Positions 1-27,324 of a DNA stretch of 64,000 nt are shown here, piece after piece (position 1 is the first letter of the stretch; each line of letters begins with the position of its first letter). A program made the translations under genes and the position numbers. Below the pieces are notes generated by a model. The model searched no databases and was not told where the DNA came from. It saw only the letters and a list, made by a program, of their open reading frames with translations. Source of the DNA: Mytilus edulis (taxonomy: Eukaryota); NCBI RefSeq assembly GCF_963676685.1, contig NC_092350.1:3658001-3722000 (forward strand), written 5' to 3'.

Positions 1-3000
1 TGATTGATTGTGTTATAGTTACCATTAAAGTATCGTACTGTATCGCCAAGTTTTGTTTTCTCTTTCTAAATATCGTAAACATGAATGTTTGAGCCTTGAT
101 TAGTTGTGTTATAGTGACCATTAAAGTATGGTACTGTATTGCCGATTTTAGATTTCTCTTTCTATATATCGTGATCATGAATGTTTGAGCCTTGATTAAT
201 TGTGTTATAGTTACCATTAAAGTATCGTACTGTATCACCAAGTTTTGTTTTCTCTTTCTAAATATCGTAAACATGAATGTTTGAGCCTTGATTAATTGTG
301 TTATAGTTACCATTAAAGTATCGTACTGTATTGCCGATTTTAGTTTTCTCTTTCTAAATATCGTGATCATGAATGTTTGAGCCTTGATTGATTGTGTTAT
401 AGTTACCATTAAAGTATCGTACTGTATTGCCGATTTTAGATTTCTCTTTATGATATATCGTGATCATGAATGTTTGAGCCTTGATTAATTGTGTTATAGT
501 GACCATTAAAGTATGGTACTGTATTGCCGATTTTAGTTTTCTCTTTCTATATATCGTGATCATGAATGTTTGAGCCTTGATTAATTGTGTTATAGTGACC
601 ATTAAAGTATGGTACTGCATTGCCGATTTTAGTTTTCTGCTTATGATATATCGTGATCATGAATGTTTGAGTCTTGATTGATTGTGTTATAGTGACCATT
701 AAAGTATGGTACTGTATTGCCGATTTTAGTTTTCTGCTTATGATATATCGTGATCATGAATGTTTGAGTCTTGATTGATTGTGTTATAGTGACCATTAAA
801 GTATCGTACTGTATTGCCGATTTTAGTTTTCTCCTTATGATATATCGTGATCATGAATGTTTGAGTCTTGATTGATTGTGTTATAGTTACCATTAAAGTA
901 TCGTACTGTATCGCCAAGTTTTGTTTTCTCTTTCTAAATATCGTAAACATGAATGTTTGAGCCTTGATTAGTTGTGTTATAGTGACCATTAAAGTATGGT
1001 ACTGTATTGCCGATTTTAGATTTCTCTTTCTATATATCGTGATCATGAATGTTTGAGCAAACCTTGATTGATTGTGTTATAGTGACCATTAAAGTATCGT
1101 ACTGTATTGCCGATTTTAGTTTTCTGCTTATGATATATCGTGATCATGAATGTTTGAGTCTTGATTGATTGTGTTATAGTGACCATTAAAGTATGGTACT
1201 GTATTGCCGATTTTAGTTTTCTGCTTATGATATATCGTGATCATGAATGTTTGAGTCTTGATTGATTGTGTTATAGTGACCATTAAAGTATCGTACTGTA
1301 TTGCCGATTTTAGTTTTCTCCTTATGATATATCGTGATCATGAATGTTTGAGTCTTGATTGATTGTGTTATAGTGACCATTAAAGTATGGTACTGTATCG
1401 CAAAGTTTTGTTTTCTCTTTATGATATATCGTGATCATGAATGTTTGAGTCTTGATTAATTGTGTTATAGTGACCATTAAAGAATGGTACTGTATTGCCG
1501 ATTTTTGTTTTCTCTTTATGATATATCGTGATCATGAATGTTTGAGCCTTGATTGATTGTGTTACAGTGACCATTAAAGTATGGTACTGTATTGCCGATT
1601 TTAGATTTCTCTTTCTATATATCGTGATCATGAATGTTTGAGCCTTGATTGATTGTGTTATAGTTACCATTAAAGAATGGTACTGTATTGCCGATTTTAG
1701 ATTTCTCTTTCTATATATCGTGATCATGAATGTTTGAGCCTTGATTGATTGTGTTATAGTGATCATTAAAGAATGGTACTGTATTGCCGATTTTAGATTT
1801 CTCTTTCTATATATCGTCATCATGAATGTTTGAGCCTTGATTGATTGTGTTATAGTTACCATTAAAGTATCGTACTGTATCGCCAAGTTTTGTTTTTTTT
1901 TTCTATATATCGTCATCATGAATGTTTGAGCCTTGATTAATTGTGTTATAGTGACCATTAAAGTATCGTACTGTATTGCCGATTTTTGTTTTCTCTTTCT
2001 ATATATCGTGATCATGAATGTTTGAGCCTTGATTGATTGTGTAATAGTGACCATTAAAGAATGGTACTGCATTGCCGATTTTTGTTTTTTCTTTCTATAT
2101 ATCGTGATTATGAATGATTGAGCCTTGATTGATTGTGTTATAGTGACCATTAAAGTATCGTACTGTATTGCCGATTTTTGTTTTCTCTTTATGATATATC
2201 GTGATCATGAATGTTTGAGCCTTGATTGATTGTGTTATAGTTACCATTAAAGTATCGTACTGTATCGCCAAGTTTTGTTTTCTCTTTCTATATATCGTGA
2301 TCATGAATGTTTGAGCCTTGATTAATTGTGTTATAGTTACCATTAAAGTATCGTACTGTATTGCCGATTTTTGATTTCTCTTTCTATATATCGTGATTAT
2401 GAATGTTTGAGCCTTGATTAATTGTGTTATAGTGACCATTAAAGAATGATACTGTATTGCCGATTTTTGTTTTCTCTTTCTATATATCGTGATTATGAAT
2501 GTTTGAGCCTTGATTAATTGTGTTATAGTTACCATTAAAGTATCGTACTGTATTGCCGATTTTAGTTTTCTCTTTCTATATATCGTGATTATAAATGTTT
2601 GAGCCTTGATTAATTGTGTTATAGTTACCATTAAAGAATGGTACTGTATTGCCGATTTTTGTTTTCTTTTTCTATATATCGTGATTATGAATGTTTGAGC
2701 CTTGATTAATTGTGTTATAGTTACCATTAAAGTATCGTACTGTATCACCAAGTTTTGTTTTCTCTTTCTATATATCGTGATTATGAATGTTTGAGCCTTG
2801 ATTGATTGTGTTATAGTTACCATTAAAGTATCGTACTGTATTGCCGATTTTAGATTTCTCTTTATGATATATCGTGATTATGAATGTTTGAGCCTTGATT
2901 AATTGTGTTATAGTGACCATTAAAGTATCGTACTGTATTGCCGATTTTAGATTTCTCTTTCTATATATCGTGATTATGAATGTTTGAGCAAACCTTGATT

Positions 3001-4660
3001 GATTGTGTTATAGTTACCATTAAAGTATCGTACTGTATTGCCGATTTTAGATTTCTCTTTATGATATATCGTGATTATGAATGTTTGAGCCTTGATTAAT
3101 TGTGTTACAGTGACCATTAAAGTATGGTACTGTATTGCCGATTTTAGTTTTCTCTTTCTATATATCGTGATCATGAATGTTTGAGCCTTGATTGATTGTG
3201 TTATAGTTACCATTAAAGTATCGTACTGTATTGCCGATTTTAGATTTCTCTTTATGATATATCGTGATTATGAATGTTTGAGCCTTGATTAATTGTGTTA
3301 TAGTGACCATTAAAGTATGGTACTGTATTGCCGATTTTAGATTTCTCTTTCTATATATCGTGATCATGAATGTTTGAGCCTTGATTGATTGTGTTATAGT
3401 TACCATTAAAGTATGGTACTGTATTGCCGATTTTAGTTTTCTCTTTCTATATATCATGATTATGAATGTTTGAGCCTTGATTAATTGTGTTATAGTTACC
3501 ATTAAAGTATCGTACTGTATCGCCAAGTTTTGTTTTCTCTTTCTAAATATCGTAAACATGAATGTTTGAGCCTTGATTGATTGTGTTATAGTTACCATTA
3601 AAGTATGGTACTGCATTGCCGATTTTTGTTTTCTCTTTCTATATATCGTGATTATGAATGTTCGAGCCTAGATTGATTGTGTTATAGTTACCATTAAAGA
3701 ATGGTACTGTATTGCCGATTTTAGTTTTCTCTTTCTATATATCGTGATCATGAATGTTTGAGCCTTGATTGATTGTGTTATAGTTACCATTAAAGTATCG
3801 TACTGTATTGCCGATTTTAGATTTCTCTTTATGATATATCGTGATTATGAATGTTTGAGCCTTGATTAATTGTGTTATAGTTACCATTAAAGAATGGTAC
3901 TGTATTGCCGATTTTAGATTTCTCTTTATGATATATCGTGATTATGAATGTTTGAGCCTTGATTGATTGTGTTATAGTGACCATTAAAGTATCGTACTGT
4001 ATTGCCGATTTTAGATTTCTCTTTCTATATATCGTGATCATGAATGTTTGAGCCTTGATTGATTGTGTTATAGTGACCATTAAAGTATGGTACTGCATTG
4101 CCGATTTTTGTTTTCTCTTTCTATATATCGTGATCATGAATGTTTGAGCCTTGATTGATTGTGTTATAATGACCATTAAAGAATGGTACTGCATTGCCGA
4201 TTTTTGTTTTCTCTTTCTATATATCGTGATTATGAATGTTTGAGCCTTGATTGATTGTGTTATAGTTACCATTAAAGTATCGTACTGTATTGCCGATTTT
4301 AGTTTTCTCTTTCTAAATATCGTCATCATGAATGTTTGAGCAAACCTTGATTGATTGTGTTATAGTGAACATTAAAGTATCGTACTGTATTGCCGATTTT
4401 AGTTTTCTCCTTATGATATATCATGATCATGAATGTTTGAGCCTTGATTGATTGTGTTATAGTGACCATTAAAGTATGGTACTGTATTGCCGAGTTTTGT
4501 TTTCTCTTTATGATATATCGTGATCATGAATGTTTGAGCAAACCTTGATTGATTGTGTTATAGTTACCATTTAAGTATCGTACTGTATTGCCGATTTTAG
4601 TTTTCTCTTTATGATATATCGTGATCATGAATGTTTGAACAAACCTTGATTGATTGTGTT
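1..4660. repeat. Tandem satellite, 96-bp monomer (~48 copies; a few 99-bp variants), runs off the left window edge
   Basis: tgattgattgtgttatagttaccattaaagtat... recurs at 1, 97, 193, etc. The variant gagcaaacc (+3 bp) occurs at ~1057, 2988, 4340, 4538 and 4638. The 32-aa periodic ORFs in the track follow from 96 bp = 32 codons. Confidence 0.98.
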
Positions 4661-4814
4661 TTTATTGATACTTGTGTTTTTATTGATACTTGAAAACAGT
4701 ATTGAAACTACTTGAAGCTTATCTTTGTCTAATAAAGTGCAATACACAGTACGAATAACTTAATGGACATATAGCACTTTCAGAACGGTATTTATATATT
4801 CATATCACATTAGA

Positions 4815-7316
4815 ATGAGGAGTATAATTTATTCAGTATTTTCTATTATCATTTACTGTTATGATTTTGTACAGGCATCAGACTGTGATATCAAATATGA
4901 TTTTAAGGAGAAGGAGGAAGTAAAAATAGCAGATTGTAAAAACAAAGGACTGAATTTTATACCTCAGGATTTACCGGGAGATATAGAAGTTTTAGATATG
5001 AGTTTTAATCGATTGCAAATTATTGGGAACAATTCTTTCGTTAATTATAGAGATCTGCAAGAAATTTACCTGAGTCGCAACCAACTACGTTATTTATCTA
5101 ACAAATCATTTCAAGGATTACATAAACTTACAATACTCGACATGTCTGGAAATATCCTTAATTTATCTAAAGTGTATTCAACAGATCTATTTCATCAAAT
5201 TAAAAACTTAACAAAATTGGATATCAGGAGAAATATGCCTCAACCAATAGGATTTGTTACGGATTATAATTATCCCGATCATGCATTCGGTATTCTGACG
5301 GAGTTGTCGTTCCTAGGAATCGATATGAAGCCTTTGCCACACTTTGGAAGTGGATTCGGTCACATGACCACTCTTAAAGAATTACACTTTGAATCATGTT
5401 ATTTAGTTCACTTGTCAAATAAAACCTTTGAGAGATTTTCATCCTCTGTAGAACAGCTGTCTATCAGAAATTGTCGGTTACACTTTGTTGTCACAGAATA
5501 TAACGCATTGTTACCGTTTCCAAATCTTCATGTGATAGATTTTTCTGGAACGTTCATGCATTTGAAGCACGCATTGCAGCTGTTACACCCATATCGTAAT
5601 GCCAATATATCGACAATAAACTTCGGTCATGTGAGTGACATTAGTATTGACAGTGCCGATATCCCGTATGTTACGACAATTACAGTTGACATAATGAAGC
5701 ACCTGAAAACTATTTGTGTAGAAAATTTAGATTTATCACAGAATGGTATAATAGATTACGAGCCTGGATCTTTGTTCTCATTTGATCACCTTGAATGTTT
5801 ACAACATATTTCTTTTAAAGAAAACAGGTTTTTGCTTGCAAGCGAGAAAAATCTAAATGAGATAAAACATTTCTTTTATAGAACTGTTAGATTAAAATCG
5901 TTCGACTATTCATATAATACTGTCAACTATTTTAAACATAATTCAGTTTCTTCAAATTCAGATTTAAATTGTTCATTTCACAGTTGTGTGATATTACCAA
6001 AGTCACTTGAAAAAATAGATGTCAGTTACACCATAGCAAATACTTTCCCTGAAATAATTCTTATAGTACCTAAAAATAACAGTCTTACATATCTAGATGT
6101 ATCGTATTCAAGATCAAATATTGCCATAATCATTCTTCAAATTCGATTGGAAACATTTATTGCTGATGGTGTAGACTATATATTTGCATGGAATCAATTA
6201 CAACGTTCTTCTTATAACACCGTAAAAACAATTATATGGAAAAACGCCGAACTGGATAATGCATTTAGACTATTCGGTAATCGGTTTTTCAAAAGTACTA
6301 GATCTGTCGAGTCAATAGATATATCTGGAAATAGCATTTGGTATATCCCGGACGACCTATTTAAGCCAATGCCAAACTTGACAAATCTGTCTTTAAGTAA
6401 AAATTCACTTCAGGCTATTCCGGTACAACTGAGTGATCATGCTAAAGTACAAACGCTGGACGTAAGGAAGAATAGATTAACAAGTGTGAGCTCAGCTATC
6501 AGAGGCTGGGCAGATAAAATGCAAGAACTGCATGGAATGACTTTACATCTCACTGATAATGCATTTGAGTGCAATTGTGACAATATAGACTTTATAAGGT
6601 GGATTCAGACTACAAAGGTTAATCTGGACAGCCGATCATATAAATGTAAATTATCTAACGGAACAGTTATCGATACACTTATTGCGTACAACTCTTTATA
6701 TGACTTATTTGCAGACTGTAAGAATACTATGTGGTTAACGTTTGCATCAACATTATTATCGACATTCATAACGATCTCAATGCTACTTATAGCCTATAGC
6801 AAGAGATGGAAAATCATCTTCTCTATCTATGGAGTAATTCGCCGTGTTGTTGAGCGTAAAGTCAGGAAGTGCTTCCAATATGACGTGTATATATCATATG
6901 AAGGAGATATTGTCATTTGGATTAAAAATGTATTAATACCAAAACTTGAGACCGAGTGGGGACTGACGATGTGTATAAAAGATCGAGATTTTTTAAGTGG
7001 ACCGAGCCAAGCGGACAATGAGGCAGAAAGCATCCAAAACAGCAGGTCTATTATATTTCTCATCACGCCTGAATTCATATCGTCACCTGATTGTAAGTTT
7101 GAACTTGACCGGGCAAAATATGAGAGAATTACAAAAAATCTGGAGCGTATCATTATCATTACAAAAGATGTAGCAATTACTGATATTCCTGTAGAGTTTT
7201 CGTACATTTGGAATTATGCATTTATTATACAATGGCCGAACAATCTAGAGGACTTGAATGATACTTGGAGGAAACTGAGGATGTTTCTTACAGATGGCTT
7301 AATTACTGAGAAGTAA
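4815..7316 (+). CDS. Toll-like receptor, intact, 833 aa, single coding exon (TLR-A)
   Basis: Signal peptide; LRRNT (CDI..ADCKNKGLNFIPQDLP); LxxLxLxxNxL repeats; LRRCT (NAFECNCDNIDFIRW..YKC..C); TM (WLTFASTLLSTFITISMLLIAY); TIR (YDVYISY, CIKDRDF, CKFEL, WRKL). Confidence 0.97.
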   Translation: MRSIIYSVFSIIIYCYDFVQASDCDIKYDFKEKEEVKIADCKNKGLNFIPQDLPGDIEVLDMSFNRLQIIGNNSFVNYRDLQEIYLSRNQLRYLSNKSFQGLHKLTILDMSGNILNLSKVYSTDLFHQIKNLTKLDIRRNMPQPIGFVTDYNYPDHAFGILTELSFLGIDMKPLPHFGSGFGHMTTLKELHFESCYLVHLSNKTFERFSSSVEQLSIRNCRLHFVVTEYNALLPFPNLHVIDFSGTFMHLKHALQLLHPYRNANISTINFGHVSDISIDSADIPYVTTITVDIMKHLKTICVENLDLSQNGIIDYEPGSLFSFDHLECLQHISFKENRFLLASEKNLNEIKHFFYRTVRLKSFDYSYNTVNYFKHNSVSSNSDLNCSFHSCVILPKSLEKIDVSYTIANTFPEIILIVPKNNSLTYLDVSYSRSNIAIIILQIRLETFIADGVDYIFAWNQLQRSSYNTVKTIIWKNAELDNAFRLFGNRFFKSTRSVESIDISGNSIWYIPDDLFKPMPNLTNLSLSKNSLQAIPVQLSDHAKVQTLDVRKNRLTSVSSAIRGWADKMQELHGMTLHLTDNAFECNCDNIDFIRWIQTTKVNLDSRSYKCKLSNGTVIDTLIAYNSLYDLFADCKNTMWLTFASTLLSTFITISMLLIAYSKRWKIIFSIYGVIRRVVERKVRKCFQYDVYISYEGDIVIWIKNVLIPKLETEWGLTMCIKDRDFLSGPSQADNEAESIQNSRSIIFLITPEFISSPDCKFELDRAKYERITKNLERIIIITKDVAITDIPVEFSYIWNYAFIIQWPNNLEDLNDTWRKLRMFLTDGLITEK

Positions 7317-11454: not shown

Positions 11455-11593
11455 TGATTTCCGTTATAGCACATTCCCAATGACCATCAAACAAAAAGGA
11501 TTTTAGTAAATCAATCACAAACTGTCCTGCATGATTATCCAAATGCGTTGTTATCGAATCCCAGCAGTATAGATGAATGTAGAAATTATCCAT
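11455..11593 (-). pseudogene. Polinton penton/minor-capsid-like protein, N-terminal fragment
   Basis: MDNFYIHLYCWDSITTHLDNHAGQFVIDLLKSFLFDGHWECAITEI fits the F-Y-x-x-L-x-S...N...F...L...G-x-W-E-x-A-L-x-E-I start of Polinton pentons; it lies immediately downstream of the integrase. Confidence 0.7.
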
Positions 11594-11629
11594 AGTAGTC
11601 GTCTTACACTCTTTTTTGTTTGTTTTCAA

Positions 11630-12715
11630 GGGCTCTTATAGTTTTTCAGCATAGTTTGAGGTATCCATTAATTAAACTTGCTTGGCCAGCCCATCCATTT
11701 CACATACACCTTTCCTCTTCTCTTACGTAATACTTTTTCTATACGATAAACGGTATCATCAGTTATGGTCACTTTGCTGAGTTCTCCACTTTGAAATGTC
11801 CCCTGAATAACAAAACCTTTCGTATCTTTCAGAACGAAATAGGGGAGTCCTTGTCTTTTTCCTCTGTCAGCAACTATAAAATACTCCATCGTCAAACGCT
11901 CGTCATACTCACGGTCAAACACGTAACGTAATTTTGAAATTCTGACTGTTTCACCCAGACGAAAGGCATACCGAGGTGTTGTTTTCTTTTTCTTTCTTTG
12001 AGTTTTTAGATTGCATTTTCCATAACCTAATTTCATCCTTTTGATTCACATTTTTTGGAGCTATCTTTATTGATCGATGAACCGTAGCATTATAACTTTG
12101 TGTCACTGATGCCAAAACATCAATTCATCGATGCAACTGATGTCTAGTCATATATCGACTGAGTCTAAACTTTATCTTTTTAATCCCTCGTTCAGCGTAG
12201 GATGCTTTTAATTCATTGTCAGTGAAAAACTGGTCTATAATTCTTTCCTGGAGTAGTTTTGCCACCTCCCGGTTTTTATATTTAACTCCTTTGTCAGAGC
12301 GAAATTTAGTTGGCTTTCTACCCTCTCTAAAAATTGATTCTCATGTATCTCACATCTCCACTCCTTTGGCGGATCTGAGAACCTTTGTCCATATGAATCG
12401 AGAGAAGATATCAATCGCTAGTACGAAGTAGGCATATCCATCATTGTCTTTAGTGTACGTTGTTAACACAGCAGTGTCAACATCCCATCGGTAGTCGATA
12501 TATGGTGAGATTACTTGAGCACGAGGAAATGTTCTATTCACTTGGCGATGAAGGCCAAACGTCTATTGAGTTACCAACCATTTTCTAATTTTCGTTTTTC
12601 CTAGTACATACTTTCATTCTTTCCGCACTGCTTTATATAGTTCATTCACACCTGACAAAGATCCGGGGTGTTGTGGGTTGTAATATATCTTCTCCGAATA
12701 ATCTTTATATTTCAT
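11630..12715 (-). pseudogene. Polinton retroviral-like (c-)integrase with C-terminal chromodomain, disrupted
   Basis: YYNPQHPGSLSGV...RWDVD...AIDIFSRF...FRSDKG...YAERGIK (DDE)...FRLGETVRISK...YRIEKVLRKRRGKVYVKWMGWPSKFN. Confidence 0.92.
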
Positions 12716-12925
12716 CGTTATTATGTTCTTGCTTGAAACTCCCTCTTAATAATCTTTTTCACAAAACCATGAAATCATCTCGTGTTTCCATGTATCAAGC
12801 TCTTTATTATCCATATAACATCACAATCGGGTGTTATCATTTCGAATGCACAACAGAATAGACAAAAAACTCGCAACGTTTATTGCCAACAACAAACGTC
12901 AAAATGTTCTATCTATATCCATCGC

Positions 12926-13313
12926 TTAACATGAATTAGCCTCTCTTAAACGTTCAATTTCCCTAATCACTGAATATACTGTTTCAAAGTCCTGTTCATT
13001 GTAAATTATATCATCAATATCCCTGATAAACGACATAGATAATGAATACCTTGTCGATGAAGCATGATTGCAGGAAAAGTTCGTGTTCATAGCTAAATTC
13101 TCGAGGTAAATGAAGTGGATTAATGGGTCCGTCTATTTTATGAAAAGCCGATGCAGTGAACGTTCTTCAATTTTTTTCTCGTTACCTAATTTCTGTAACA
13201 CTCGCACATATTGCCGGAGTCTACGGCGTCCTTATCATAAAGAAGAACTTTTCCCATTACAGTTTGATAGAACAATTCAACTCGCCTTGTACCACCACGT
13301 TAGTTAGTTGCAT
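12926..13313 (-). pseudogene. TATA-box-binding-protein-like gene, frameshifted and internally deleted
   Basis: Hand translation across frames: MQLTNVVVQGELNCSI / NCNGKSSSL**GRRRLRQYVRVLQKLG / ASAFHKIDGPINPLHLPREFSYEHELF / PAIMLHRQGIHYLCRLSGILMI / QDFETVYSVIREIERL. These blocks are collinear with the TBP core [77 protein letters not shown]. Confidence 0.85.
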
Positions 13314-14209
13314 CTTAAATGGTCTCTTGTTTACTTATTCGATGTGTTCGTGAAGAAACTCTAAACAAGAATGAATGAACCAACCCGTTTCGTATCTTTA
13401 TATAGAAAAGGTCAAGGGTATCATTGGATAGTTTCTGGGAAAGAGTCACTATAAACTAATGACATTGACTTTCAACACCCTAAAAACAATGATTCGAAAA
13501 GGTATGCACTAGAAACATTTGAATGGCTAGAAAAAGTAATATCAATAATAGAGACCAAGACGTTTTTCTCTGATGTATTGAATTTTACGTCATTTAAAAC
13601 TGTAATGAATATAAATTATGTAGCCCTAAAAAACAAATGTATAAAACTACAGCTCAAGGAAAATGCACGGGATTCATTTTTCTTTCTCGTACAGGGTATT
13701 TCTCATTGAAAATTAAACACCCTTCAAATTCACCAATTTGGAATCATTTTCCAGTGTGCTACACATTTGGATTTATCTAATTTATGATTCACATGACTAA
13801 ATATACATGTCTGTGATGATGGTCTACTTATTCTTTACTAAGCTCCTCTCCTCCTTCGCAGGCTTGAGACTGTCTAACATAAAGATATTAGGTGGAGTTA
13901 GAGCTTGAAATTGAGGTCAAGGTCATAGGTTAATTTGACGTTCTATATTTTGACCGTTGCTTTAAATTTATATCTTTACACCATAAAGCCATATGAACTG
14001 ACATTTTATACGGATTTTTAATATCTTAATATCAAAATAGATATTAACTGGTGGTAAGACCTTCAATTGTTCTCTGAACAATTGGTTTTTAATTTCTTTT
14101 TTTATTTCTTTTTATTTCTTCTTTTTTTTCCCTTCTTTTTTCTTCTTTTATAAGCCTGTTTTTTCCTTTTTTCTCTTCTTTTATGATTCTTTTTCTTTTG
14201 TTTTTTTTT

Positions 14210-17200
14210 CTCAATTTGTAGTGTATGCTTGCTTGACCAGAGGTAATCAGATAATTAATCCAGTGATAAGCCATCATATAGTGATCTCTACATGTACATT
14301 CAGGACTAAAGTTTTTCTCCCTCCTCCGTCTACTAAAAGGACCAACAGGCATTGGTTTTCCAATGGCTTCTAAATACTAGACATTTGCATCCAATCCAAT
14401 CACTTTTTGACAGATCTGGTCTCCCCAACGAATACGTGTTTCACCGGCCTTGTGATATTGAGTAAAAATGATGCTCGACCCGCCAATGATATTGTCTTTA
14501 AAAACTTTAAGATCTTTGTTTTGCCTATCAAATAAGGCAAAATTGGCTCCCACTTTCTTAGCTTGAAAGAGCATGCGTCTGGCGATTCCAGGGACGCATA
14601 TAACAATCTGAAAATGTCTATGTTTTTCTTGAAATAGAATGTTTGAAGACGTTCTACTGCCGTTACGAAGGATCCGACGTCACGATTGTTGTACCATACT
14701 AAAAAAATCTTCGAATGTTGACATATTATTCTTTCGCCAAACGTTGACACACAATTGGTAATCTTCAGGTGAAATGTTAGATTGTTTCAGGGAACTGTAA
14801 AAAGTTTCATGCGGTGGTAATTCGAGATGATATAATTTTTCGGGGTCATCAAACCATTCATATTGGAAAAATCCTTTTTGCTCCTCCACCTGGTATGCTT
14901 TTAAGAATTCAGCGTATGATGTTCCTGGTGCTAAAAATTGCACCACGTCCAGAAATTTGTAATATTTGAAGGATAACAGGCATACGTGCTGTTGTTTTTT
15001 ACCGACAAACGGACGATCTTCTTCCACGTGCGTATCTAGAAACATAGCGAGTTTTTGTTTGATGAGATTTATGTCGTATTTACCCGAATTAAATCCAAAT
15101 ACTGGAATCTGCGTCATATATTCCTCTAACTGTCCATATAGGGATTTCAATTAATTTTCCATGATTTTTTCTCCATTGAGAATGCTTTGATCGCCCTCTG
15201 GTGGTTGATTGTCTTCATCGTCTTTATCAATGCATGCATCTTCGTCCTGGTTAAAATCCCCTTCTTCACTCCAGCGCTGTATGGTTTTATTCAGTTCCTG
15301 TTTGACCCAACCCCATTTGATTTGAGACAGTTCAATAACATTTTCATACATTTCAAACATGGCATTAAACATGGAGTTTTAACGTAACGAGGTTTGAGTC
15401 AACGAAACACATCGGATCGGTATGAACTGGTACGTTGCTGCAGAGAGAGACGGTTATTGGTACTTGTTTAGTCGTATACTGTAGTTTGCCGGAAGTCGTA
15501 TCGTGTAGTTTTTGTAGTATATCCTCGAAATCAAAGACAATGAACCACGGAAATATTTGATCTTTCGCGGGAACCTGAATGTCACATTCTTCCAATTTGT
15601 CGAAAATGGTTTGTTGGGCTTTACAAAATTCACCAGGGTAAATATACTTCCTTTGGCTGGTATACATGTGCTGATGTCATTGAAGATGACCGTGATGATT
15701 AAAGTGACGTTCACATGTTTGGCATTGATATTTTTTAGCGTAATTCTTAAACTCTTTAATGTACGAGAGGCGATGTTCGTACATAATAAATACATTGTCT
15801 CTTTAAAACGACAGAGAGACTTGTACACACAAAAAGCCGTATCGTCTTCCTTCAATTCATAGACGTTTATATTCAATTGAAAACAGGATTAAAATTCTGG
15901 AATTTCTTTTAACTGTAATCCGGGAAACAGCTTTGCTTCGTATGTACTTTCATTTCGTCGTTTCTGATAGCCATTCCATTGTTGAAAAAAATGCTGCAGA
16001 CTACGTTCTAAGTTAGTGATGGGTGGTCCTCTGTGTAACGCCAAGCACAGGAAATCATAGAGTTTATCCATAAATGGCTTAGCATTTTTATTGTCTTTTA
16101 CGAGAGCGTGTATGCTTGTCTTATCTTTAATGTAGTCTCGCAGAGCCGTTTCTCCTTTTCCTAGCGTATACTGTGTAGTGTCGATTACAAATAGCTCATT
16201 GGTCACTAGGAAAAGTTTCCATTTGGTGTCGGTCTTTGTTTCATCAGGTATTCCCGCAGATTTAAGTCCGTGAGTTTCCACCGTAGTTTCTAGAGATCAC
16301 TTCTCTTTGAAATAAACAGGGGTTCATGAAAAAACGGAATCGTTTGCGTAAAGTTTGAAAAACCTGTATCGTTTTTCTTCTATGTGAATTAGAATGACGC
16401 CAAAAGTCATGGTAAGCTTGAAGGCGTGTTGTTGACGCTTGTATATATTCTCGGCAGCTAGCATGAGTTGGTGCATGTCGACGTCATATTTTAGTGGTAT
16501 GTTACATACGGAATGAATGGGACCTTCTCGATGATTTTCAAGATAAAAGGAGCGTTGGCCTCGTACATTTCTTTTAAAGCCAGGTCGTTTTAGCCTCCTT
16601 CTATCTCCCAAGGATATGGACCCTGTCCATAAGGGGACACTTGCAATTGTGTCACTGGCCGACCTGATAGTGTCGTTGCATATCGCGAAGGTATAAGTCC
16701 AGTTTGTTGGTGAAAGACTCATTACATAGTTGACAATAAACACGCTGAACGACTGTCTTCGAGGGATTGGTGCGTGGTTTCTTGATGGCTGGTACCTCTA
16801 TAGATACTTGTGCCGGTCTTTTTAGTGATTGTCTGTTAGGACTGTGACTGTATTGTTGATGTTTTCGTAATCCGTTAGCCGTCACACAACGCTTGGCACT
16901 AATCATACATTCGTATTTCGGCAACACAGTGGGGCTACCTGAGCACTGATTTTCGTGTTTGCGTTTTTCATAGCTCTGAAGTAACATTTTATGACAATTT
17001 GTATATGGATACCGTATACCTTGATGTTTGGTTTGTTTAAGAGCTAAAAGTTTTGCTGGTCGGTTGTAGTTTTTGTCGCATAGACCGCATGTTAAACGAA
17101 GTCGTTCAGATATTAAGGGATGGGACGACAGATGGTGTTGTTTGGCCCATACACGTATTTGCGATGGCAAATGTAACGTCTCCAATTCTCTTCTGATAAA

Positions 17201-17251
17201 ATCGTCTTCAGCATAGTATATATCTGTTTCCATGTTCCACAATTGTTTCAT
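14210..17251 (-). pseudogene. Protein-primed family B DNA polymerase with N-terminal C2H2-like zinc fingers, fragmented and 3'-truncated
   Basis: ExoI (WFIVFDFE), ExoII (PVFGFNSGKYDINLIK), KFLD..FLAPGTSY..KGFF.YEWFD, ExoIII (YNNRDV), GGSSIIF, motif A (KVIGLDAN..MPVG). About four degenerate CxxC..H fingers lie in 16652-17251. Confidence 0.9.
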
Positions 17252-17504
17252 GCTGAATTAAATGCAGAACATAATTAATCCCGCAAACGTTAATTCTATC
17301 GAAAAACATCCTGCGTGACTGGTAATTGTTTTAGATTTTCTATAGTCAAGTATTAATTTAAAGCTTTCTGATTGGCTCTTTTATGGATTGAATGAAAGAT
17401 AAGCTATAATTCAACACACTCTATATCAATTTAGATTCATCAAACACCTTCCCCGTGCATTTTTGAAGATATAAATCAATTAAAATGAACGACATCGGGC
17501 TTGT

Positions 17505-19250
17505 CAAATATATATATATAAAAGTCTATAAAAAACGACCAACCAGCAAATTTACTATGAACCGGATCGTCTAGAATAGGCGATACTATGCAGATAAGGA
17601 AAAAATTATATCAGTCTAAAGATTTGCACAACGGTACTGATATAAGATGTTATAATACGAAAATGTTGTTATTAAATCGTGCTGACAAATATTTCGGCTC
17701 AACAAATGGCCTTCTTCAAGTGTCACAAGTTTTAACAATACTCATATATATATAGAGTCTATAAGAATCTACCAACCAGTAAACTTAATAGGTATTGGAT
17801 CATCAAAATTGACAATACTACACAAACAGGAAAAAATTATATGAGTCTGAAAGATTGTGTAACAATACCGATAAATAGATGGAAAACAAAACACTAAAAA
17901 GTGTTGAATATCATTGCACAAAGATAAAAAAAACTGAACAGATGATATAAATTATACAATAATTGCAAATATTTCGGCTCAACAAATGGCCTTCTTCGGT
18001 GCCAAACGTTTTAACAATAATGATATATAATGTATAAGGTGTAAACATAGATCACTAATAATACAGGTAAGTTTTGGTCGATTGATTTTAACCCAAAATC
18101 CTGAATATAATAATATAAACAATAGACTGTAAATTTAATTATTTCTTTCTATTGATTCCATCTGGATGGAGGACACCCAGTGTTTTTATCCAAAACTTCT
18201 CCCGATTTTCTCTTTGCCTATTTTGCCATGTACAATCCTGTTCGTTCACAAGGATCTTCATGTGATCAAAATCTTTCAGATTGTGATCTGGTAACCTGAA
18301 ATGTTGGCTGACAGGAATATACGGTTTTTTTGTGAGGTCACTCCTGTGGCCATTGAGGCGTTTGTGAAATGGCTGCATAGATTCACCAACATATTGGAGA
18401 CCACATCTAGGACACTCAAGAACGTAAATCACGTTTGAGCTTTTGCAGTTGACATTGCAGAAGATCTTGTATGTCTTTTCTGTGGTCTTACTGTGAAATG
18501 TTGATGAATGCTGCATTTGGTTGCAACATTTGCAGCGCTTATCCCCACAATGCTGACAATTACCTACAGTATGGTTAGGTTTGGAAAGGTCAGCACGGAC
18601 AAGTATATTTCTCAGGCTGTTGGGTTGTTTGAAGGCAATCATGGGAGGCTCAGGAAAGATTTTGGATAACTTCGAATGTTTCTCGATTGCTGTCCAATGA
18701 TTACGAATGGTCTTGAAACTATTTCTCAGGCATGGATGGTAGGTGAGCACACATGGGATTCTTTTACTTTTCTGTTTATCTTTGTAAGTTAGCAGACTGC
18801 TTCACGGGATGGATTCCGCTTTTCGAAAACTAATTTTGATGTTTTTGTGTTTATATACCCTTCTTTTCAAATGTCCTTTGAGCTGCCCCAGACGTTGTTT
18901 TGCAGTGTCTTCAGAGGAGCAGATTCGCCTTATTCTGAGAGCTTGGCTGTATGGAATACTCTTCGTGCAGTGTGGAGGATGGCAACTTTCAGGCGACAAG
19001 TATTGATGAATATCTGTAGGTTTAGAGTATATATCTGTGTTTATTATACCTACAGAGAGGGTGCTAGATGTATCCAGGAAGTTTATGGTGGAATAAGAAT
19101 TATACATCTAGCCCGAAATATTTGCAATTATTGTATAATTTATATCATCTGCAGCTGTTCAGTGTTTTTTTTATCTTTGTGCAATGATATTCAACACTTT
19201 TTTGTGTTTTGTTTTCCATCTATTTATCGGTATTGTTACACAATCTTTCA
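17505..19250 (-). mobile_element. Penelope-like element, 5'-truncated, C-terminal GIY-YIG, tandem 3' repeats and inverted 5' pLTR
   Basis: RT thumb ([36 protein letters not shown], 18790-19095) and GIY-YIG (VIYVLECPRCGLQYVGES, 18139-18750). 19112-19250 is the reverse complement of ~17848-17977. It ends in (TA)n at ~17509. Degenerate hammerhead-like motifs at ~17683-17726 and ~17963-18003. Confidence 0.92.
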
Positions 19251-19901
19251 GTCACAGAAAATAATTATATTTATAAGTACGTCTGAGTCAGTGACAACTG
19301 TGTGGTCGTGTGGTGGTCGTTTGGTCTAGCGGGACGGCTGCAGTGCAGGCGATTTGGTGTCACGATATCACAGTAGCATGGGTTCGAATCCCGGCGAGGG
19401 AAGAACCAAAAATTTGCGAAAGCAAATTTACAGATCTAACATTGTTGGGTTGATGTTTAGACGAGTTGTATATACATTATGTACACAGCCATGTATCACC
19501 ATCATTGATGGCGATCCGATGGATACATCTGTTGTAGAGTTGTCACTGACTCAGACGTACTTATAAATATAATTATTTTCTGTGACTGTATATTACATTA
19601 ATTTGTAGGATCCTTTACTATAGATAATTTAGCTGATCTGTAACATCTTCATGCCTTATATATCATGTACTGTAGTACGCCGCTAGATTAAAACTGACGA
19701 GGAAAGGTAACACACGGCCAGCGAAAGCTCTTTTTTTGAGAGCCCAGGTGGTCGTGTGGTCTAGCGGGACGGCTGCAGTGCAGGCGATTTGGTGTCACGA
19801 TATCACAGTAGCATGGGTTCGAATCCCGGCGAGGGAAGAACCAAAAATTTGCGAAAGCAAATTTACAGATCTAACATTGTTGGGTTGATGTTTAGACGAG
19901 T

Positions 19902-19931
<30 letters not shown>
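19249..19931 (+). mobile_element. Non-autonomous element with tRNA-like Pol III boxes, arranged as inverted fragment + ~1.4 tandem units + (TA)n
   Basis: Direct repeat 19312-19473 / 19747-19908 with A-box-like TGGTCGTGTGG and B-box GGTTCGAATCC; 51-bp inverted repeat 19249-19299 / 19538-19588. Confidence 0.75.
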
Positions 19932-19932
<1 letters not shown>

Positions 19933-20016
19933 CAAAAGTAAATAAACACGGTGTACAGAATGTATATAATAATATTTTTAAATTTGCAAACTACATTTCA
20001 CATCAAATAATAACAG

Positions 20017-20081
20017 TTCGTTAAAATATTGTCACTAGCGCTTTCATGCCTTCTGGCAATCTTCAGGCGACGTTTTAACAA
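20017..20081 (-). ncRNA. Minimal type I hammerhead ribozyme in the 3' pLTR
   Basis: Reverse complement of the motif at 22346-22410. Confidence 0.8.
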
Positions 20082-20154
20082 TGTCCTTGACGACACTGCC
20101 GTTGGTAACGTTTATTACGTTCAATAACGATAAGGGGAGATAAATCAAACGTGT

Positions 20155-21987
20155 TTAAGTAGATCCGTTTAATTTTGGCTGAAAGTCCTTTATAAAGTGT
20201 GCTTCCTTTGCCAGTCTTTTATATTTGTTCGATTCGTTCATTTTATAGAACGGATATACGGTAAATTTTCCACTACTGCACGTTTCGAAATGTTCGCTCA
20301 CATCTTGCATTCGAGTGGATGGATCTCGTATCTGTTGTCTGTGAACACGAACTCTTTGACAAATTGAGTTACCAGTCTGTCCGATGTACCATTCCTTGCA
20401 AGTGCTGCATACAATACAGTAAATAAGGTTTACCGTTTTGCAATTCATGTCTGCATTTGGAATAATGGTTTGGCCGTTTTTCAATGTTATTTGCGGGCCG
20501 GTTGCCATGTATTCACAAAGACCACATCTAGGGTCATTACATTTTGAAACGTTGTATTGTATTCCATTTGGGTCATAAAACTTAGCCCTTGTTAAAATCT
20601 TTTTAAGATTTAAAGGCTGTCTTTTACTTTTCAGGAATTTTTCTGTAGGGAAAAGCTTTTTTAATTTTTTCGTTTTTTGTAAAACTGGCAAATTTGCTTT
20701 TATGACGTTGAATATGTCAGGATTGTACGGGTTATGAGTGCTAACAAACGGGATAAGTTCTGTATTACTCTCTTTGCGTGCTGTGGACCTGAGTTCCGTC
20801 ATTGGTATAGCTTTTGCCTTTTCTATTCCCTTTTCTATTAGTGGGTTTGGATAGTTTTGTTCTTTCAAAAACACCTTCAGTTCATTCAAACGTAATTCCT
20901 TCGTAAAATCATCACTCACAATTGTACATACACGTCGTGCTAGACAAAACGGGATGTTTCTTTTCGTATGTGAAGGATGGCATGAATGAAAATTCAGGTA
21001 TTGGTGGGTGTCCGTCTTCTTATAATATATATCTGTGGTTAAGGTTGTTCCATTCTTTAATATTAAAATATCTAGAAATGGCAGTCTTTGTTCGCTAGAT
21101 TCGATGGTAAATTTAATCGAAGGATGTAATGTGTTTATCAGACTATGAAACTTCTCTAAATTGTGACTTTTGTTTAAAATGATAAAACAGTCGTCTAAGA
21201 ATCGCTTCCATTCCGATTTTACGTACACTTTAAAAGCTGTATCAAATTCACTTTCAACTTGTTGATACATTTTATCCTCCAGAAATCCCATCACGAGAGT
21301 TGCGTATGTGGGAGCAACTTTTGTTCCCATAGCTGTACCAGAGATCTGTAGATAATATTTTCCATCAAAGAAAAAGGTGTTATTATCTAGTATGATTTTC
21401 AATCCCTCCAACAAAAAATTATTCGAAAATCTTTGGTCGATAATGTGCCTATATGACTCTAGCCAAAATTTTACAGCATCTAATCCTAGTTTGTGTGGTA
21501 TATTGGTGTAAAGACTTGTTACGTCGAAGCTTACCAATATTGCATCTTCTTTGACTTCGGCTGGTAAATGATTTAAAAAATCAAAATTATCACGGATAAA
21601 ACTAGGTACATATTGGCATAAAGGTTTCAAAATTAGGTCAATGAAATGGCTCAATCTATGAGTTGGACACTGCGGTCCAGCAACAATAGGCCGAAATTTT
21701 AAATCTTTTGGTGAATTTATTTCGATATATGCGCAATTTTGTTGTTGAACTGCTGTTTCTACTTCCTTACTTTTGTGGATTTTAGGTAGTCCATAAAAGT
21801 TGCTTGTCTTTACCTCAAATTTTGTAAGATAGTCAACTTCCTTTTCAGTAGTACAATGAGGAAATTTTGAAATAAGTTTGTTTATATTTCTCTTAGTTTT
21901 CTTTTCCATATTGTCGTTGAGTTCCCGATAATATTGTTTATCATTGAGCTGTTCCTGAATTTTGTCTCGGTAATATATTCTGTCCAT
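20155..21987 (-). CDS. Penelope RT + GIY-YIG endonuclease (open frame continues upstream through KEADKGG to the truncation at ~22278)
   Basis: FYGLPKIHK, RPIV, FDVTSLYTNIP, GTAMG, RFLDD, LPFLD, NLIYCIVCSTCKEWYIGQT. Confidence 0.93.
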   Translation of the reverse strand: MDRIYYRDKIQEQLNDKQYYRELNDNMEKKTKRNINKLISKFPHCTTEKEVDYLTKFEVKTSNFYGLPKIHKSKEVETAVQQQNCAYIEINSPKDLKFRPIVAGPQCPTHRLSHFIDLILKPLCQYVPSFIRDNFDFLNHLPAEVKEDAILVSFDVTSLYTNIPHKLGLDAVKFWLESYRHIIDQRFSNNFLLEGLKIILDNNTFFFDGKYYLQISGTAMGTKVAPTYATLVMGFLEDKMYQQVESEFDTAFKVYVKSEWKRFLDDCFIILNKSHNLEKFHSLINTLHPSIKFTIESSEQRLPFLDILILKNGTTLTTDIYYKKTDTHQYLNFHSCHPSHTKRNIPFCLARRVCTIVSDDFTKELRLNELKVFLKEQNYPNPLIEKGIEKAKAIPMTELRSTARKESNTELIPFVSTHNPYNPDIFNVIKANLPVLQKTKKLKKLFPTEKFLKSKRQPLNLKKILTRAKFYDPNGIQYNVSKCNDPRCGLCEYMATGPQITLKNGQTIIPNADMNCKTVNLIYCIVCSTCKEWYIGQTGNSICQRVRVHRQQIRDPSTRMQDVSEHFETCSSGKFTVYPFYKMNESNKYKRLAKEAHFIKDFQPKLNGST

Positions 21988-22345
21988 TATTACTAATGCA
22001 CCACCCTTGTCAGCTTCTTTTATAATTATCGATTCATCTTTTTGTAATCTGTATAAAGCTTGCGGTTGTTTAAATGGTAAATTATTTTTTACTTTGTCCT
22101 GTGGCTTCGGTATTAATGGAAAGTTTGACAGATGATTAATGTATAAGTCTAAATCTTTATTTTTTCCTTTTTCCGGTGTAAATGTAGATTTATTTCTTAC
22201 AATTGATTCGTCAGCTGTCTTTGATTCTTTATCCCCAAAATGATTTTTTAGTCTTAATTTTCGGCAAAATTCTTTGATTTATCACAGACTGATTATCGTT
22301 ATTGTAACGTAATAAACGTTACCAACGGCAGTGTCGTCAAGGACA

Positions 22346-23788: not shown

Positions 23789-26311
23789 CTAAAGAGTAAC
23801 TTGTCTGTTAGATGCTGACCAATCTGTGACTAACATTCTCAGTCGTCTCCAGGTATCATCTAAATCTTTTTGATCACTCGGCCATTGCACAAAGTATGCA
23901 TAATTGCAAATAAACGAAAACTCAAGGGGAATGTCGGTAATTCTAATATCTTTTGTAATTACAATTATTTTGTCCAGATTTCTCGTTACTTTTTCGTATT
24001 TTGCTCTGTCGAGTTCAAACAAGCAATCGTTTGACGATTTGAACTCGGGTGTGATGAGAAAAATGATGTACCTACTATTTTCAATACTTTCCGCCTCAGT
24101 GTCAAGAAGACTCTTACCAGCTAAAAAATCGCGATCTCTTATACACATAGTCAGTCCCCATTCGGCCTCAACTCTTGGTATTAATACATCCTTTATCCAT
24201 ATTATAATGTCTCCTGCATAAGACAAATAAACGTCGTACGTGTATCTTTTCCGAACTTTTTTCTCAATAAAACGCTGAAATACTCCATAAATGGAGAAGG
24301 CAATCTTCCATCTCTTACTATATAAAACTAGTAGTAATAATACTGTAGCACATGTAGATAAAAATGTTGAAGCAAAGGTTAACCACATAGCACTCTTACA
24401 GTCCGCAAACAAGTGCGAGAAGGAGTTGTAGACAGTAAGTGAGTCAGTAATGGTTCCATTCGATAATTGACATTTATAAGACCGACTGTCAAGATTAACT
24501 TTAGTAGTGTTAATCCATCGTATTAAGTCTAAATTATCACAGTTGCACATAAATGCATTGCCATCGAGAAACAAAGACATTCCATGCCGTGCTTGCATCT
24601 TGTCTGCCCAATTTCTTATGACAGAACTCACAGTTGTTAAGAGATTGTTTCTCATATCAAGCACCTTTATTTTAGTATGATCAGTCAGTTGTTCCGGAAT
24701 TGACGGAAGTAAATTTTTACCTAAATTTAAATTGGATAAATTAGGCATTGGTTTTAAAAGTTCGTTTGGAAAATACCAAATATTATTTCGAGATATATCC
24801 AACGACTCTACAGATGCTAATACCCCGAACAACTGGTTTCCCTTTTCTTCTATCCCTTCATTAAGATAAGCCTCATTCCATACAACTGTTTTCAAGTTGT
24901 GGTCAGGAAAACGCATTATTTCACTCCAAGGAGTTTCGTAGGAACCAGTAGATATAAATGTTTCAACTCGAATTTCCCGAAATACTAATGGCATATTTGT
25001 ACTTGAATAAGATATATCTAAATATTTGAGGTTGTTGTTTAGAGGAATTATAATCAATATTGCAGGGTATGTTGTGAGTATAGTGTTACTCATATTTAGT
25101 ATTTCTAGTGATTTTGGTAATGTCACATAACTGCCATGAAAACTCCCTTTCTCTAAAATAGAATTCACAGAATTGTCCATGAAATAGTTGACAGCATTAT
25201 ATGAATAATCTATCGATTTTAGTTGAACAGATTTTCCACAAAAAGAATTAAAATCGCTGATCGTTTTCGTAGTAACAATAACAAACCTGTTTCTGTTTAA
25301 AGAAAGATGACGTTAACATTCAGGGCGATCAAAGGTGAATAAAGACCCAGGTTCATAATCAACTATACCATTATTTGATAAATCTAAATTCTCTACGCAG
25401 ATTGTTTTCAGATATTTCATCATGTCGGGTGTAATTGTCGTAACAAAAGGTAGTTCACTGCTATCAATACTAGCGTCACTTACATGACCAAAGTTAATTG
25501 TACTGAGATTTGAATACATGAATGGGTGTAATAAATACAATGCTCGTCTTAGATGTATAAATGTCCCATGAAAGTCTATTACACGGAGATTTGGAAACGG
25601 AAGCAAAACATCAGCATCCGTCCTTACGGCTTTTATTCGGCAGTTCGTAAGACTAAGCTCCTGTACGAAATATGAAAACGCTTGGAATGTTGTATTAGAC
25701 AGGCTTACTAGATAGCATGATTGGAAGTGTAATTCTCGAAGGTTGGTAATATGACTGAATCCCCTTCCAAATTGTGGCACAGGCATCATATCAATACCTA
25801 AAAACGACAACTCACTTAAAACACCAAATACATGGTCGGGATAAATAAAATCCTTATCAAAATCTATTGGTTGGCGCATATTACTTCTGATATCCAATTT
25901 TGTTAAGTTTTTAATTGGAACAAATATTTCCGCTGAATATGCTTTTGATAAATCAAGCATGTTATGAGACATGTCAAGCGTATCAAGAATATATAATCCT
26001 TTAAATGCCCCACTAGATAAATATTCAACTTGGTTGTTTCCCAAAATCAGTTCCTGTAAGTACTTATAATTAACGAAAGAGTCGTTGTCAATAGCTGTTA
26101 ATTGGTTCGAACTAAGATCTAGAACATTGATATCTCCTGGTAAATTCTGAGGTATAAAATTCAATCCCCTGTTTTTACAATCTGCTAGTTTAACTTCCTG
26201 TGTTTTTTTGATAACGTATTTAATATCACAGTCCGATAAATGTAAGATTTTTTTACACTCATGTATCTTAAGAATGTATACAATAGCTAAATAAATCGAA
26301 ATCCTCGTCAT
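23789..26311 (-). pseudogene. Toll-like receptor (TLR-B), full length but interrupted by one in-frame TAA at 25313-25315
   Basis: ORFs 25313-26362 and 23789-25180 are in the same frame. The bridge reads C*RHLSLNRNRF...YSYNAVNYF, where paralogs have CL(Q/R/K)H. Likely start is the ATG at 26311 (MTRISIYL). LRRCT, TM and TIR are intact. Confidence 0.92.
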
Positions 26312-27324
26312 TTTGTGAACTGTATATTCTCGAAAGAATTTCAAATAGTGCCTTGAAAACAAACAGCTTCAAACGCGAACAACACTTTATTTCGAACGAA
26401 TAAACACATTGAAATATATATAAGTCTCCATGCTTCATTAATGTTGCATGGATGGATGAAATACAAAAGTTTTTTTTTAACTTATTAAGTTTACATAAGG
26501 AATAGTTTTTTTCTTTACATACGACATACCTGAATTGTGTGTTCTCCTAAATTTACAAGAGCTAAAAAATAACACAAGATCACTGTCTGACATTGATCTT
26601 TAAAATACAGGAAAATTATAAACAACCAAACAATGATTTGACCATGTGTGCCATTTATAACTTTTAATGCAATTTACGTATGCAATTTTTACATTTATTA
26701 AATATACCTTCGAAAACAAGTAAATAATTTCCAACAAAATGTTAGAGAAGCTATCTGTATACAATTGAGTCTGGCGTAATCTTTCAAGAAATAACTACGA
26801 TGGTATGATAAGAGCAGTGTCCGGTACCTAGATGTTTGGTACTGTCATGTGGGAGTTATATATACATTTATATATTTGATTGTTTCATGAGTTTATTTTA
26901 GATTAACAATTTATCAATAAAAATACAGCGTATTTTTCGTATGTTTTGGTGAAGTTGATTGTATGTTTCACTGGTACCAGTAGTTATATGTTTGAGCGAA
27001 ATTTACATACATATACGATAGTTAGGAGTGTATAGTTAAATAACAGTAATTTACAGGTTATTTTATTTACATACGTATACGCAAGATATGTGGTATCGTA
27101 TCAACATAAAAGTGTAAGCAGGTCTTGATGGAAAAGTAAAATCACAAAAATACTGAACTCAGAGGAAAATCAATTCGGAAAGTCCATAATCACATGGCAA
27201 AATCAAATAACAGAACGCATCAAAAACGAATGGACAAGAACTGTCATATTCCTGACTTGGTACAGGCTGCTAAAGAAATGTGACAAATTACATTGCAAAG
27301 CTAAAATCAACTTTGTGGTGAATA

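Follow-up and report, generated by a model that had tools for sequence, protein, structure and literature searches.

One lineage of Polintons in the genome of Mytilus edulis carries an intact, intronless gene for a compact protein resembling the TATA-binding protein (TBP), and the late-type genes of these elements are frequently preceded by a TATA-like motif, YRTAAGAR. We propose, with a probability of about 0.65, that this protein is a viral TBP that reads the motif as a late promoter, bringing in host RNA polymerase II for transcription of the genes for capsid, integrase and packaging. The presence of a matching TATA-like motif on the late genes suggests that the elements likely bring their own promoter-reading factor. 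The original prediction, that a TBP homologue is carried inside a Polinton next to its integrase, was made on a decayed copy of the gene in a stretch of 64,000 nucleotides (hereafter the window). It had offered two functions: directing host polymerase to the promoters of the element, which gains support from the motif described here, and interference with host TFIID, which remains a rival.

In the window, the five TBP peptide blocks that had been reported on the minus strand were all recovered between 13313 and 12926, distributed over three frames (table 1). As had been described, the gene is intronless and has no N-terminal extension, starting at the core ATG (13313); its stop (12926) and the ATG of the co-oriented integrase (12715) are separated by 211 nt, close to the ~210 bp originally given. 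The reported absence of the middle of repeat 1 is real for this copy and does not extend to the family, in which intact members have both full repeats. Alignment with a sister copy placed a 122-nt deletion at 13264/13265; further lesions are a tandem of stops (13237-13232) and short indels close to 13177, 13160, 13079 and 13009. We concluded that the window copy is a dead pseudogene, a fossil, and not a naturally shortened TBP. Its single frames, with stops read as X, gave no Pfam match. Two further copies of the same TBP family occur in the genome. The sister copy, which belongs to a local duplication on the same contig (C7), is >98% alike over the aligned parts and reaches 50 bits against PF00352, where the cut-off is 22.9. 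The other, on C2, matches the window copy at 88-92% and retains an open frame, minus 30 nt of repeat 1 (Pfam TBP, E 3.9e-14). Since both of these copies score on the profile, the homology seen in the window is not due to chance.

The remnant around the pseudogene matches the C2 copy at 88% over 14211-17408, and ~3.6 kb present in the C2 copy, including a PC4 gene, are absent between the protein-primed DNA polymerase (pPolB) and the TBP-like gene of the window. Terminal repeats or a target duplication were not found for the window remnant. The TATA-type and initiator-like elements upstream of its TBP-like gene point to an early-type promoter, and a similar arrangement was observed upstream of the TBP genes of the relatives. 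On either side of the remnant, at 4764-7316 (+) and 23789-26368 (-), lie two Toll-like receptor-type genes, recognized in translation by leucine-rich repeats plus a TIR-like C terminus, and the block is duplicated ~166 kb away on the same contig. Pieces of a Penelope-like RT/GIY-YIG retroelement with inverted repeats adjoin the remnant (18139-22278, -), and a tandem satellite array with a ~97-bp unit occupies positions 1-4360.

Table 1. Features of the Polinton remnant, in window coordinates.
Feature	Position	Strand	Basis
Truncated Polinton remnant, full extent	11455..17408	-	Comparison with the C2 copy
Minor capsid gene, 5' part; the match to the C2 copy stops here	11456..11596	-	Comparison with the C2 copy
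Polinton rve integrase with chromodomain, broken	11629..12715	-	60% to the C6 integrase, 5 stops
TATAAGA, late-type motif before the minor capsid gene	11634..11640	-	Motif scan
CGTAAGA, second motif copy	11721..11727	-	Motif scan
Polinton TBP-like pseudogene, decayed, with a 122-nt deletion, stops and frameshifts	12926..13313	-	Alignment to copies and intact relatives
Initiator-like TCATTC run ~25-30 nt behind the TATA element (putative)	13369..13379	-	Sequence
Canonical TATA-type element upstream of the TBP-like gene; putative early-type promoter	13395..13404	-	Sequence
Protein-primed DNA polymerase B, in pieces	14248..16783	-	PF03175, E 0.004

Apart from the host TBP (C3) and TRF2 (C1) genes, which are separate loci and both contain introns, searches with PF00352 and with protein queries located nine loci in the genome with an intronless TBP-like gene. 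Polinton core genes adjoin seven of the nine; at the locus on C9, PC4 and CARD are the only neighbours, and no core neighbour was detected at the C2263 locus, which lies at a contig end. Four of the TBP-bearing elements (C6, C10, C11 and C12) have terminal inverted repeats starting with AGTAGT and 6-bp target duplications, and those on C6 and C10 are 18.6 kb long and 99.4% alike. Both pPolB and the rve integrase are present in the window remnant, C6, C12 and C2. The capsid module (the major and minor capsid proteins, MCP and mCP, the ATPase and the protease) is present in C6, C12 and C2, with MCP and mCP assigned by gene order and size and without a Pfam match; the window keeps only part of mCP. 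The linkage to Polinton genes that had been predicted was also borne out in metagenomes, where 34 loci comprised 27 strong and 7 weak matches. A Polinton core gene was found at 22 of the 27 strong loci and PC4 at 13; the other five had PC4 only (three), CARD only (one) or nothing in 1.1 kb (one). No Polinton genes were found at the seven weak loci.

The TBP-like gene is present in only a minority of the Polintons of this genome. The genome contains 116 integrase and 101 capsid matches in total; a TBP-like neighbour was located within 1.5 kb at 4 of 30 fetched integrase loci, and the gene was absent from all ten of the larger elements of the same genome that were checked (the TBP-less set). One TBP-less family, with ~21 near-identical copies (G000:C1:72447959-72451287 and ~20 other places), represents a recent burst. 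Many loci (L098-L121) combine an ATPase with an integrase but lack a capsid gene within 1.5 kb, with inverted pairs among them (C4:79127615/79132364 and C1:18801008/18805718); these are possibly a separate element type. Among the TBP-bearing loci, one subfamily (L024:4660-5982, L030:4595-5502, L060 and L048) has a CARD-domain gene that abuts or overlaps the start of TBP, and a macro-like gene also lies upstream of TBP in C6; TBP and the adjoining CARD or macro-like gene may share a transcript. A second PC4-like domain, behind a hydrophobic segment, was observed among the late genes at L078:4682-5140.

The intact TBP-like proteins are 168-175 aa long and match the Pfam TBP profile PF00352, which the original prediction had named as its own test, at E 3e-22 to 7e-26; in the C6, C11 and C12 proteins, two stretches match at 78-90 bits, against the cut-off of 22.9. 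They also match solved TBPs at E 5e-22. In the AF2 model (pLDDT 97), the intact protein aligns to TBP(-DNA) structures with a TM score of 0.83 and an rmsd of 2.5 A. These results indicate that the protein, as modelled, has the TBP saddle fold, at ~31% identity to cellular TBP.

We addressed the origin of the family with 69 close homologues, 197 found by profile search and >100 compact representatives at the 50% level; the only named hosts among the homologues were M. edulis, M. galloprovincialis and Pinctada imbricata. The Polinton-linked proteins formed one branch together with 80 compact relatives that come without DNA context and are assumed to be Polinton-borne, two of which (P0070 and P0119) are fused to integrase-like starts. 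This branch was separate from cellular TBP, TRF2, archaeal and giant-virus TBPs in three trees, with SH-aLRT 80 in a large quick tree without a completed careful search, 92/88 in a careful 42-row tree, in which some host rows are incomplete and one of these contains a few residues from intron sequence, and 83 in the third. TRF2/TBPL1, represented in the 42-row tree by one full and one partial row, and Polinton TBP were on separate branches there. Grouping with animal TBP was rejected (AU p=0.018), with the proviso that the viral clade may be drawn towards the base by long-branch effects. The earlier view that the gene is too divergent for a recent host retrocopy thus agrees with the trees, and the separate branch together with the AU result argues for an old capture. 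Values of dN/dS were 0.10-0.23 for within-clade pairs and 0.23-0.45 for cross-clade pairs, the latter near saturation, which shows purifying selection on the family. Scans of IMG/VR with Polinton TBP or capsid protein returned only giant-virus TBPs, or nothing, and an Atlas search returned TBP clusters only. The IMG/VR loci L175-L187 and L093 are giant-virus contigs whose TBPs are very near cellular TBP and keep all key residues, and a clade of 13 giant-virus TBPs was sister to cellular TBP in the tree. An archaeal-type TBP match (L130) on a contig of a genome labelled Hyphomicrobiaceae bacterium is likely the result of mis-binning.

Two classes of upstream region were observed in the TBP-plus elements. 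Early-type genes (PC4, TBP, macro-like and polymerase) often have TATAWAW, found before 12 of 36, together with an initiator-like TCAKTY. Late-type genes (integrase, capsid, ATPase and small structural genes) have YRTAAGA before 46 of 69, with 23 of 69 lacking it within 140 nt; the motif preceded 1 of 36 early-type genes. In the ten TBP-less elements of the same genome, YRTAAGA was found before 2 of 56 late-type genes and TATAWAW before 19 of 56. On the sense strand, the motif occurred 100 times in TBP-plus elements against 25 expected (13 on the antisense strand), and 13 times in TBP-less elements against 20 expected. An unguided 6-mer ranking placed TTATAA, TAAGAG, ATAAGA and TATAAG among the top five. 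For 61 sites with an assigned ATG, the spacing was 30-44 nt in 27 and 5-19 nt in 10, with none at 20-29 nt; more generally, an ATG was found at +31 to +44 for 41 of 102 sites, against a mean of 21 and a maximum of 37 at random, where both motif and spacing window were defined on the TBP-plus set itself. A spacing of 30-44 nt fits TATA geometry with very short leaders; no clear initiator peak was seen ~30 nt behind the motif. Apart from TBP, no sizeable family of genes was found to be present in most of the TBP-plus elements (26) and absent from all ten TBP-less ones, and the other clusters present only in TBP-plus elements resemble antisense frames of core genes. The TBP-plus elements form one capsid clade (support 100; integrase support 74), and the association of TBP with the motif is therefore a single phylogenetic contrast.

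Among the residues of the protein (yeast numbering), those facing other proteins are better kept than those facing DNA. The stirrup YEPE, a basic helix 2 with arginines, N69, F99, F116 and mostly F190 are kept. E186 is retained in 14 of 18 Polinton-linked and 61 of 80 other compact proteins, and E188 in 17 of 18 and 75 of 80; in TBP, this stirrup binds TFIIB. On the DNA face, N159 is replaced by T in all 18 Polinton-linked and 70 of 80 other compact proteins, V161 by S, and V122 and T124 often by N (T124 mostly so); replacement of I194, V203 and L205 is invariable or almost so. The intercalating F207 is H or R in the C6/C11/C2 subfamily, to which the window copy belongs, and F190 is replaced in the N191 clade. 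The canonical set of four intercalating phenylalanines and central Asn/Thr pairs is accordingly incomplete in Polinton TBP. Judged from the alignment, Polinton TBP appears to keep a TFIIB-type stirrup and to have a DNA face remodelled in a fixed way.

Three of the remodelled positions have been linked to altered specificity in yeast. According to PMC1636458, the substitutions I194F, V203T and L205V enable yeast TBPm3 to bind TGTA, a site that is closed to wild-type TBP; A-to-G at position 2 of the TATA box abolishes wild-type binding, and P191 constrains position 1. In the Polinton elements, position 2 of the motif was G in 46 of 55 sites for proteins with T203 and S/C205 (mostly CGTAAGA) and in 17 of 67 for those with H/R203 (mostly TATAAGA), and the motif was CATAAGA in 7 of 8 sites for those with N191, sums that leave out L060, L079, L082, L083 and L084, whose residues are unreadable. 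The loci L059 and L063 have an integrase sister to that of C6, yet carry the TBP and the CGTAAGA motif of the CG clade. Because the comparison involves three clades and related sites, the link between residues and motif is suggestive and not statistical.

Taken together, these observations are consistent with a two-step programme. The early genes (PC4, TBP-like, macro-like and polymerase) would be transcribed from canonical TATA and initiator promoters read by host TBP/TFIID. The viral TBP would then bind YRTAAGAR through its remodelled concave face, and E186/E188 of the stirrup and the helix-2 arginines would engage host TFIIB and TFIIA, perhaps aided by the PC4 of the element. Transcription would start ~30 nt downstream of the motif and yield very short leaders. 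When a TFIIB carried by the elements was sought, the matches were all host genes, and a host exon used in that search as a candidate TFIIB proved to be Brf1. RNA-type runs contain parts of the C6 element, and four of 24 were examined, on C6: two raw-read runs had no reads on the C6 TBP gene, one had contigs of a related copy with flat depth across genes and spacers, which makes them indistinguishable from DNA, and the fourth covered little of the C6 TBP gene. No transcription start sites were seen in these four runs. In a bolder form of this proposal, to which we would give even odds, one Polinton lineage has a one-protein late-gene switch, in which a minimal viral TBP reads an orthogonal TATA code that has been rewritten at least twice (TATAAGA, CGTAAGA, CATAAGA) with the TBPm3 pocket.

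Among the other readings, the protein might act as a decoy, sequestering host TFIIB/TFIIA or further partners of TBP and so shutting off the host, the motif being read by host TBP as a weak TATA box. The better conservation of the protein-facing surface and the loss of one intercalating phenylalanine in some subfamilies agree with this reading. G at position 6 can be accommodated by wild-type TBP (PMC1636458), and host TBP might therefore read TATAAGAG without a special factor. The motif of one clade is, however, mostly CGTAAGA, whose position-2 G kills wild-type binding, and the matching pocket is changed in that clade. Moreover, the changes of the DNA face are fixed to specific residues (T159 and S161) and not random, and the motif is rare in the TBP-less Polintons of the same host. 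A decoy appears unlikely.

We regard as rather improbable that the motif is a late start of baculovirus or nudivirus type, used by the RNA polymerase of a helper virus, with the TBP-like protein doing something else. Virophages share promoters with giant viruses, and the motif core, RTAAG, equals the baculovirus late initiator. TAAG also appears as a late motif in the literature; some motif copies lie directly before the ATG (the 10 of 61 sites at 5-19 nt), and no initiator signal was found 30 nt downstream. This does not explain why conservation extends over eight positions, like TATAWAWR, why the spacing in the assigned-gene set peaks at 30-44 nt with a gap at 20-29 nt, or why the TBP clades differ in the first two letters of the motif.

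That the protein is a general enhancer of element transcription, from any TATA-like promoter or possibly through RNA polymerase III, with the motif, a trait of the lineage, being read by some other factor of virus or host, seems quite improbable. TBP and motif are confounded with one lineage, and PC4 and zinc-finger genes also occur in these elements; but no other sizeable family shares the distribution of TBP, and the motif variant tracks the TBP clade against the integrase tree, as in L059 and L063. Finally, the view of the gene as a processed pseudogene derived from host TBP, or as its passive passenger, can be dismissed for the family, despite the lack of introns, by its low identity to cellular TBP, separate clade, dN/dS, intact copies in many elements and the separate, intron-bearing host TBP and TRF2 loci, and it holds only in that the window copy is non-functional.

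If our proposal of a viral late-promoter TBP is correct, TBP and the late motif would be the first concrete transcription mechanism for the capsid genes of animal Polintons, which bears on the timing of capsid-gene expression and on whether these elements still act as viruses; these "transposons" would keep an early/late viral programme. The family would be a natural library of altered-specificity TBPs, and its natural protein/motif pairs would probe how the minor-groove code of TBP can change. One small protein and one 8-bp site would offer a direct assay. The strategy would also be an independent invention, in a much smaller element, of the late TBP of herpesviruses.

The elements share with Polintons, Mavericks and adintoviruses (Polintoviricetes, group 1-type) pPolB, the chromodomain rve integrase, the major and minor capsid proteins, the A32-like ATPase and the adenain-like protease. 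The AGTAGT ends of C6 and C10, with their 6-bp target duplications, have the end motif given in the available text of PMC8097293. To the standard set, they add a TBP-like gene and a dedicated upstream motif. Like cellular TBP and TRF2/TBPL1, Polinton TBP has a two-repeat saddle, a YEPE stirrup and a basic helix 2; it differs from them in having no N-terminal tail and no introns, in forming its own clade, and in the replacement of N159, V161, T124, V122, I194, V203 and L205. The TBPs of giant viruses (Nucleocytoviricota) are likewise viral and often compact TBP folds, but the best BFVD matches were only 9-20% identical; the cellular-like ones keep N159 and branch with cellular TBP, and Polinton genes were found at 0 of 71 of their loci.

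The closest functional parallel is provided by the beta- and gammaherpesviruses, whose viral TBPs (KSHV ORF24, HCMV UL87 and EBV BcRF1) act at TATT late promoters, according to the accessible portion of PMC12529657. Both systems would pair a viral TBP fold with a TATA variant that differs by one letter and precedes structural genes, and both would use host RNA polymerase II, which we infer for the Polintons. According to the same portion of PMC12529657, the herpesvirus proteins are large, belong to a six-protein complex, bind RNA polymerase II directly and are predicted to be incompatible with TFIIB. Polinton TBP, in contrast, consists of a 170-aa core that stands alone, is clearly similar to TBP in sequence and retains the TFIIB stirrup. 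Neither a partner complex nor another TBP-linked gene family was found among the TBP-plus elements; the large ORF24-type protein, the five partner genes and TATT of the herpesvirus pre-initiation complex are absent, and the motif is YRTAAGAR. By analogy, Polinton TBP may work like ORF24, UL87 and BcRF1 while standing outside that system. Full-text literature on Polintons or Mavericks with TBP or promoter terms, to the extent accessible, contained no description of the gene family or of the motif, and the main text available for PMC8097293 and for a 2026 preprint did not mention TBP. The label "TBP" appears in the legend of figure 5 of Starrett et al. (2021; PMC8502044, available in part); the accessible supplement of that paper gave no TBP match, and the text of its figure S2 has no such label. 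Thus, Polinton TBP with its own promoter-like motif, represented in the accessible literature only by a figure-legend label, appears from sequence comparison to be a new version of the viral-TBP strategy.
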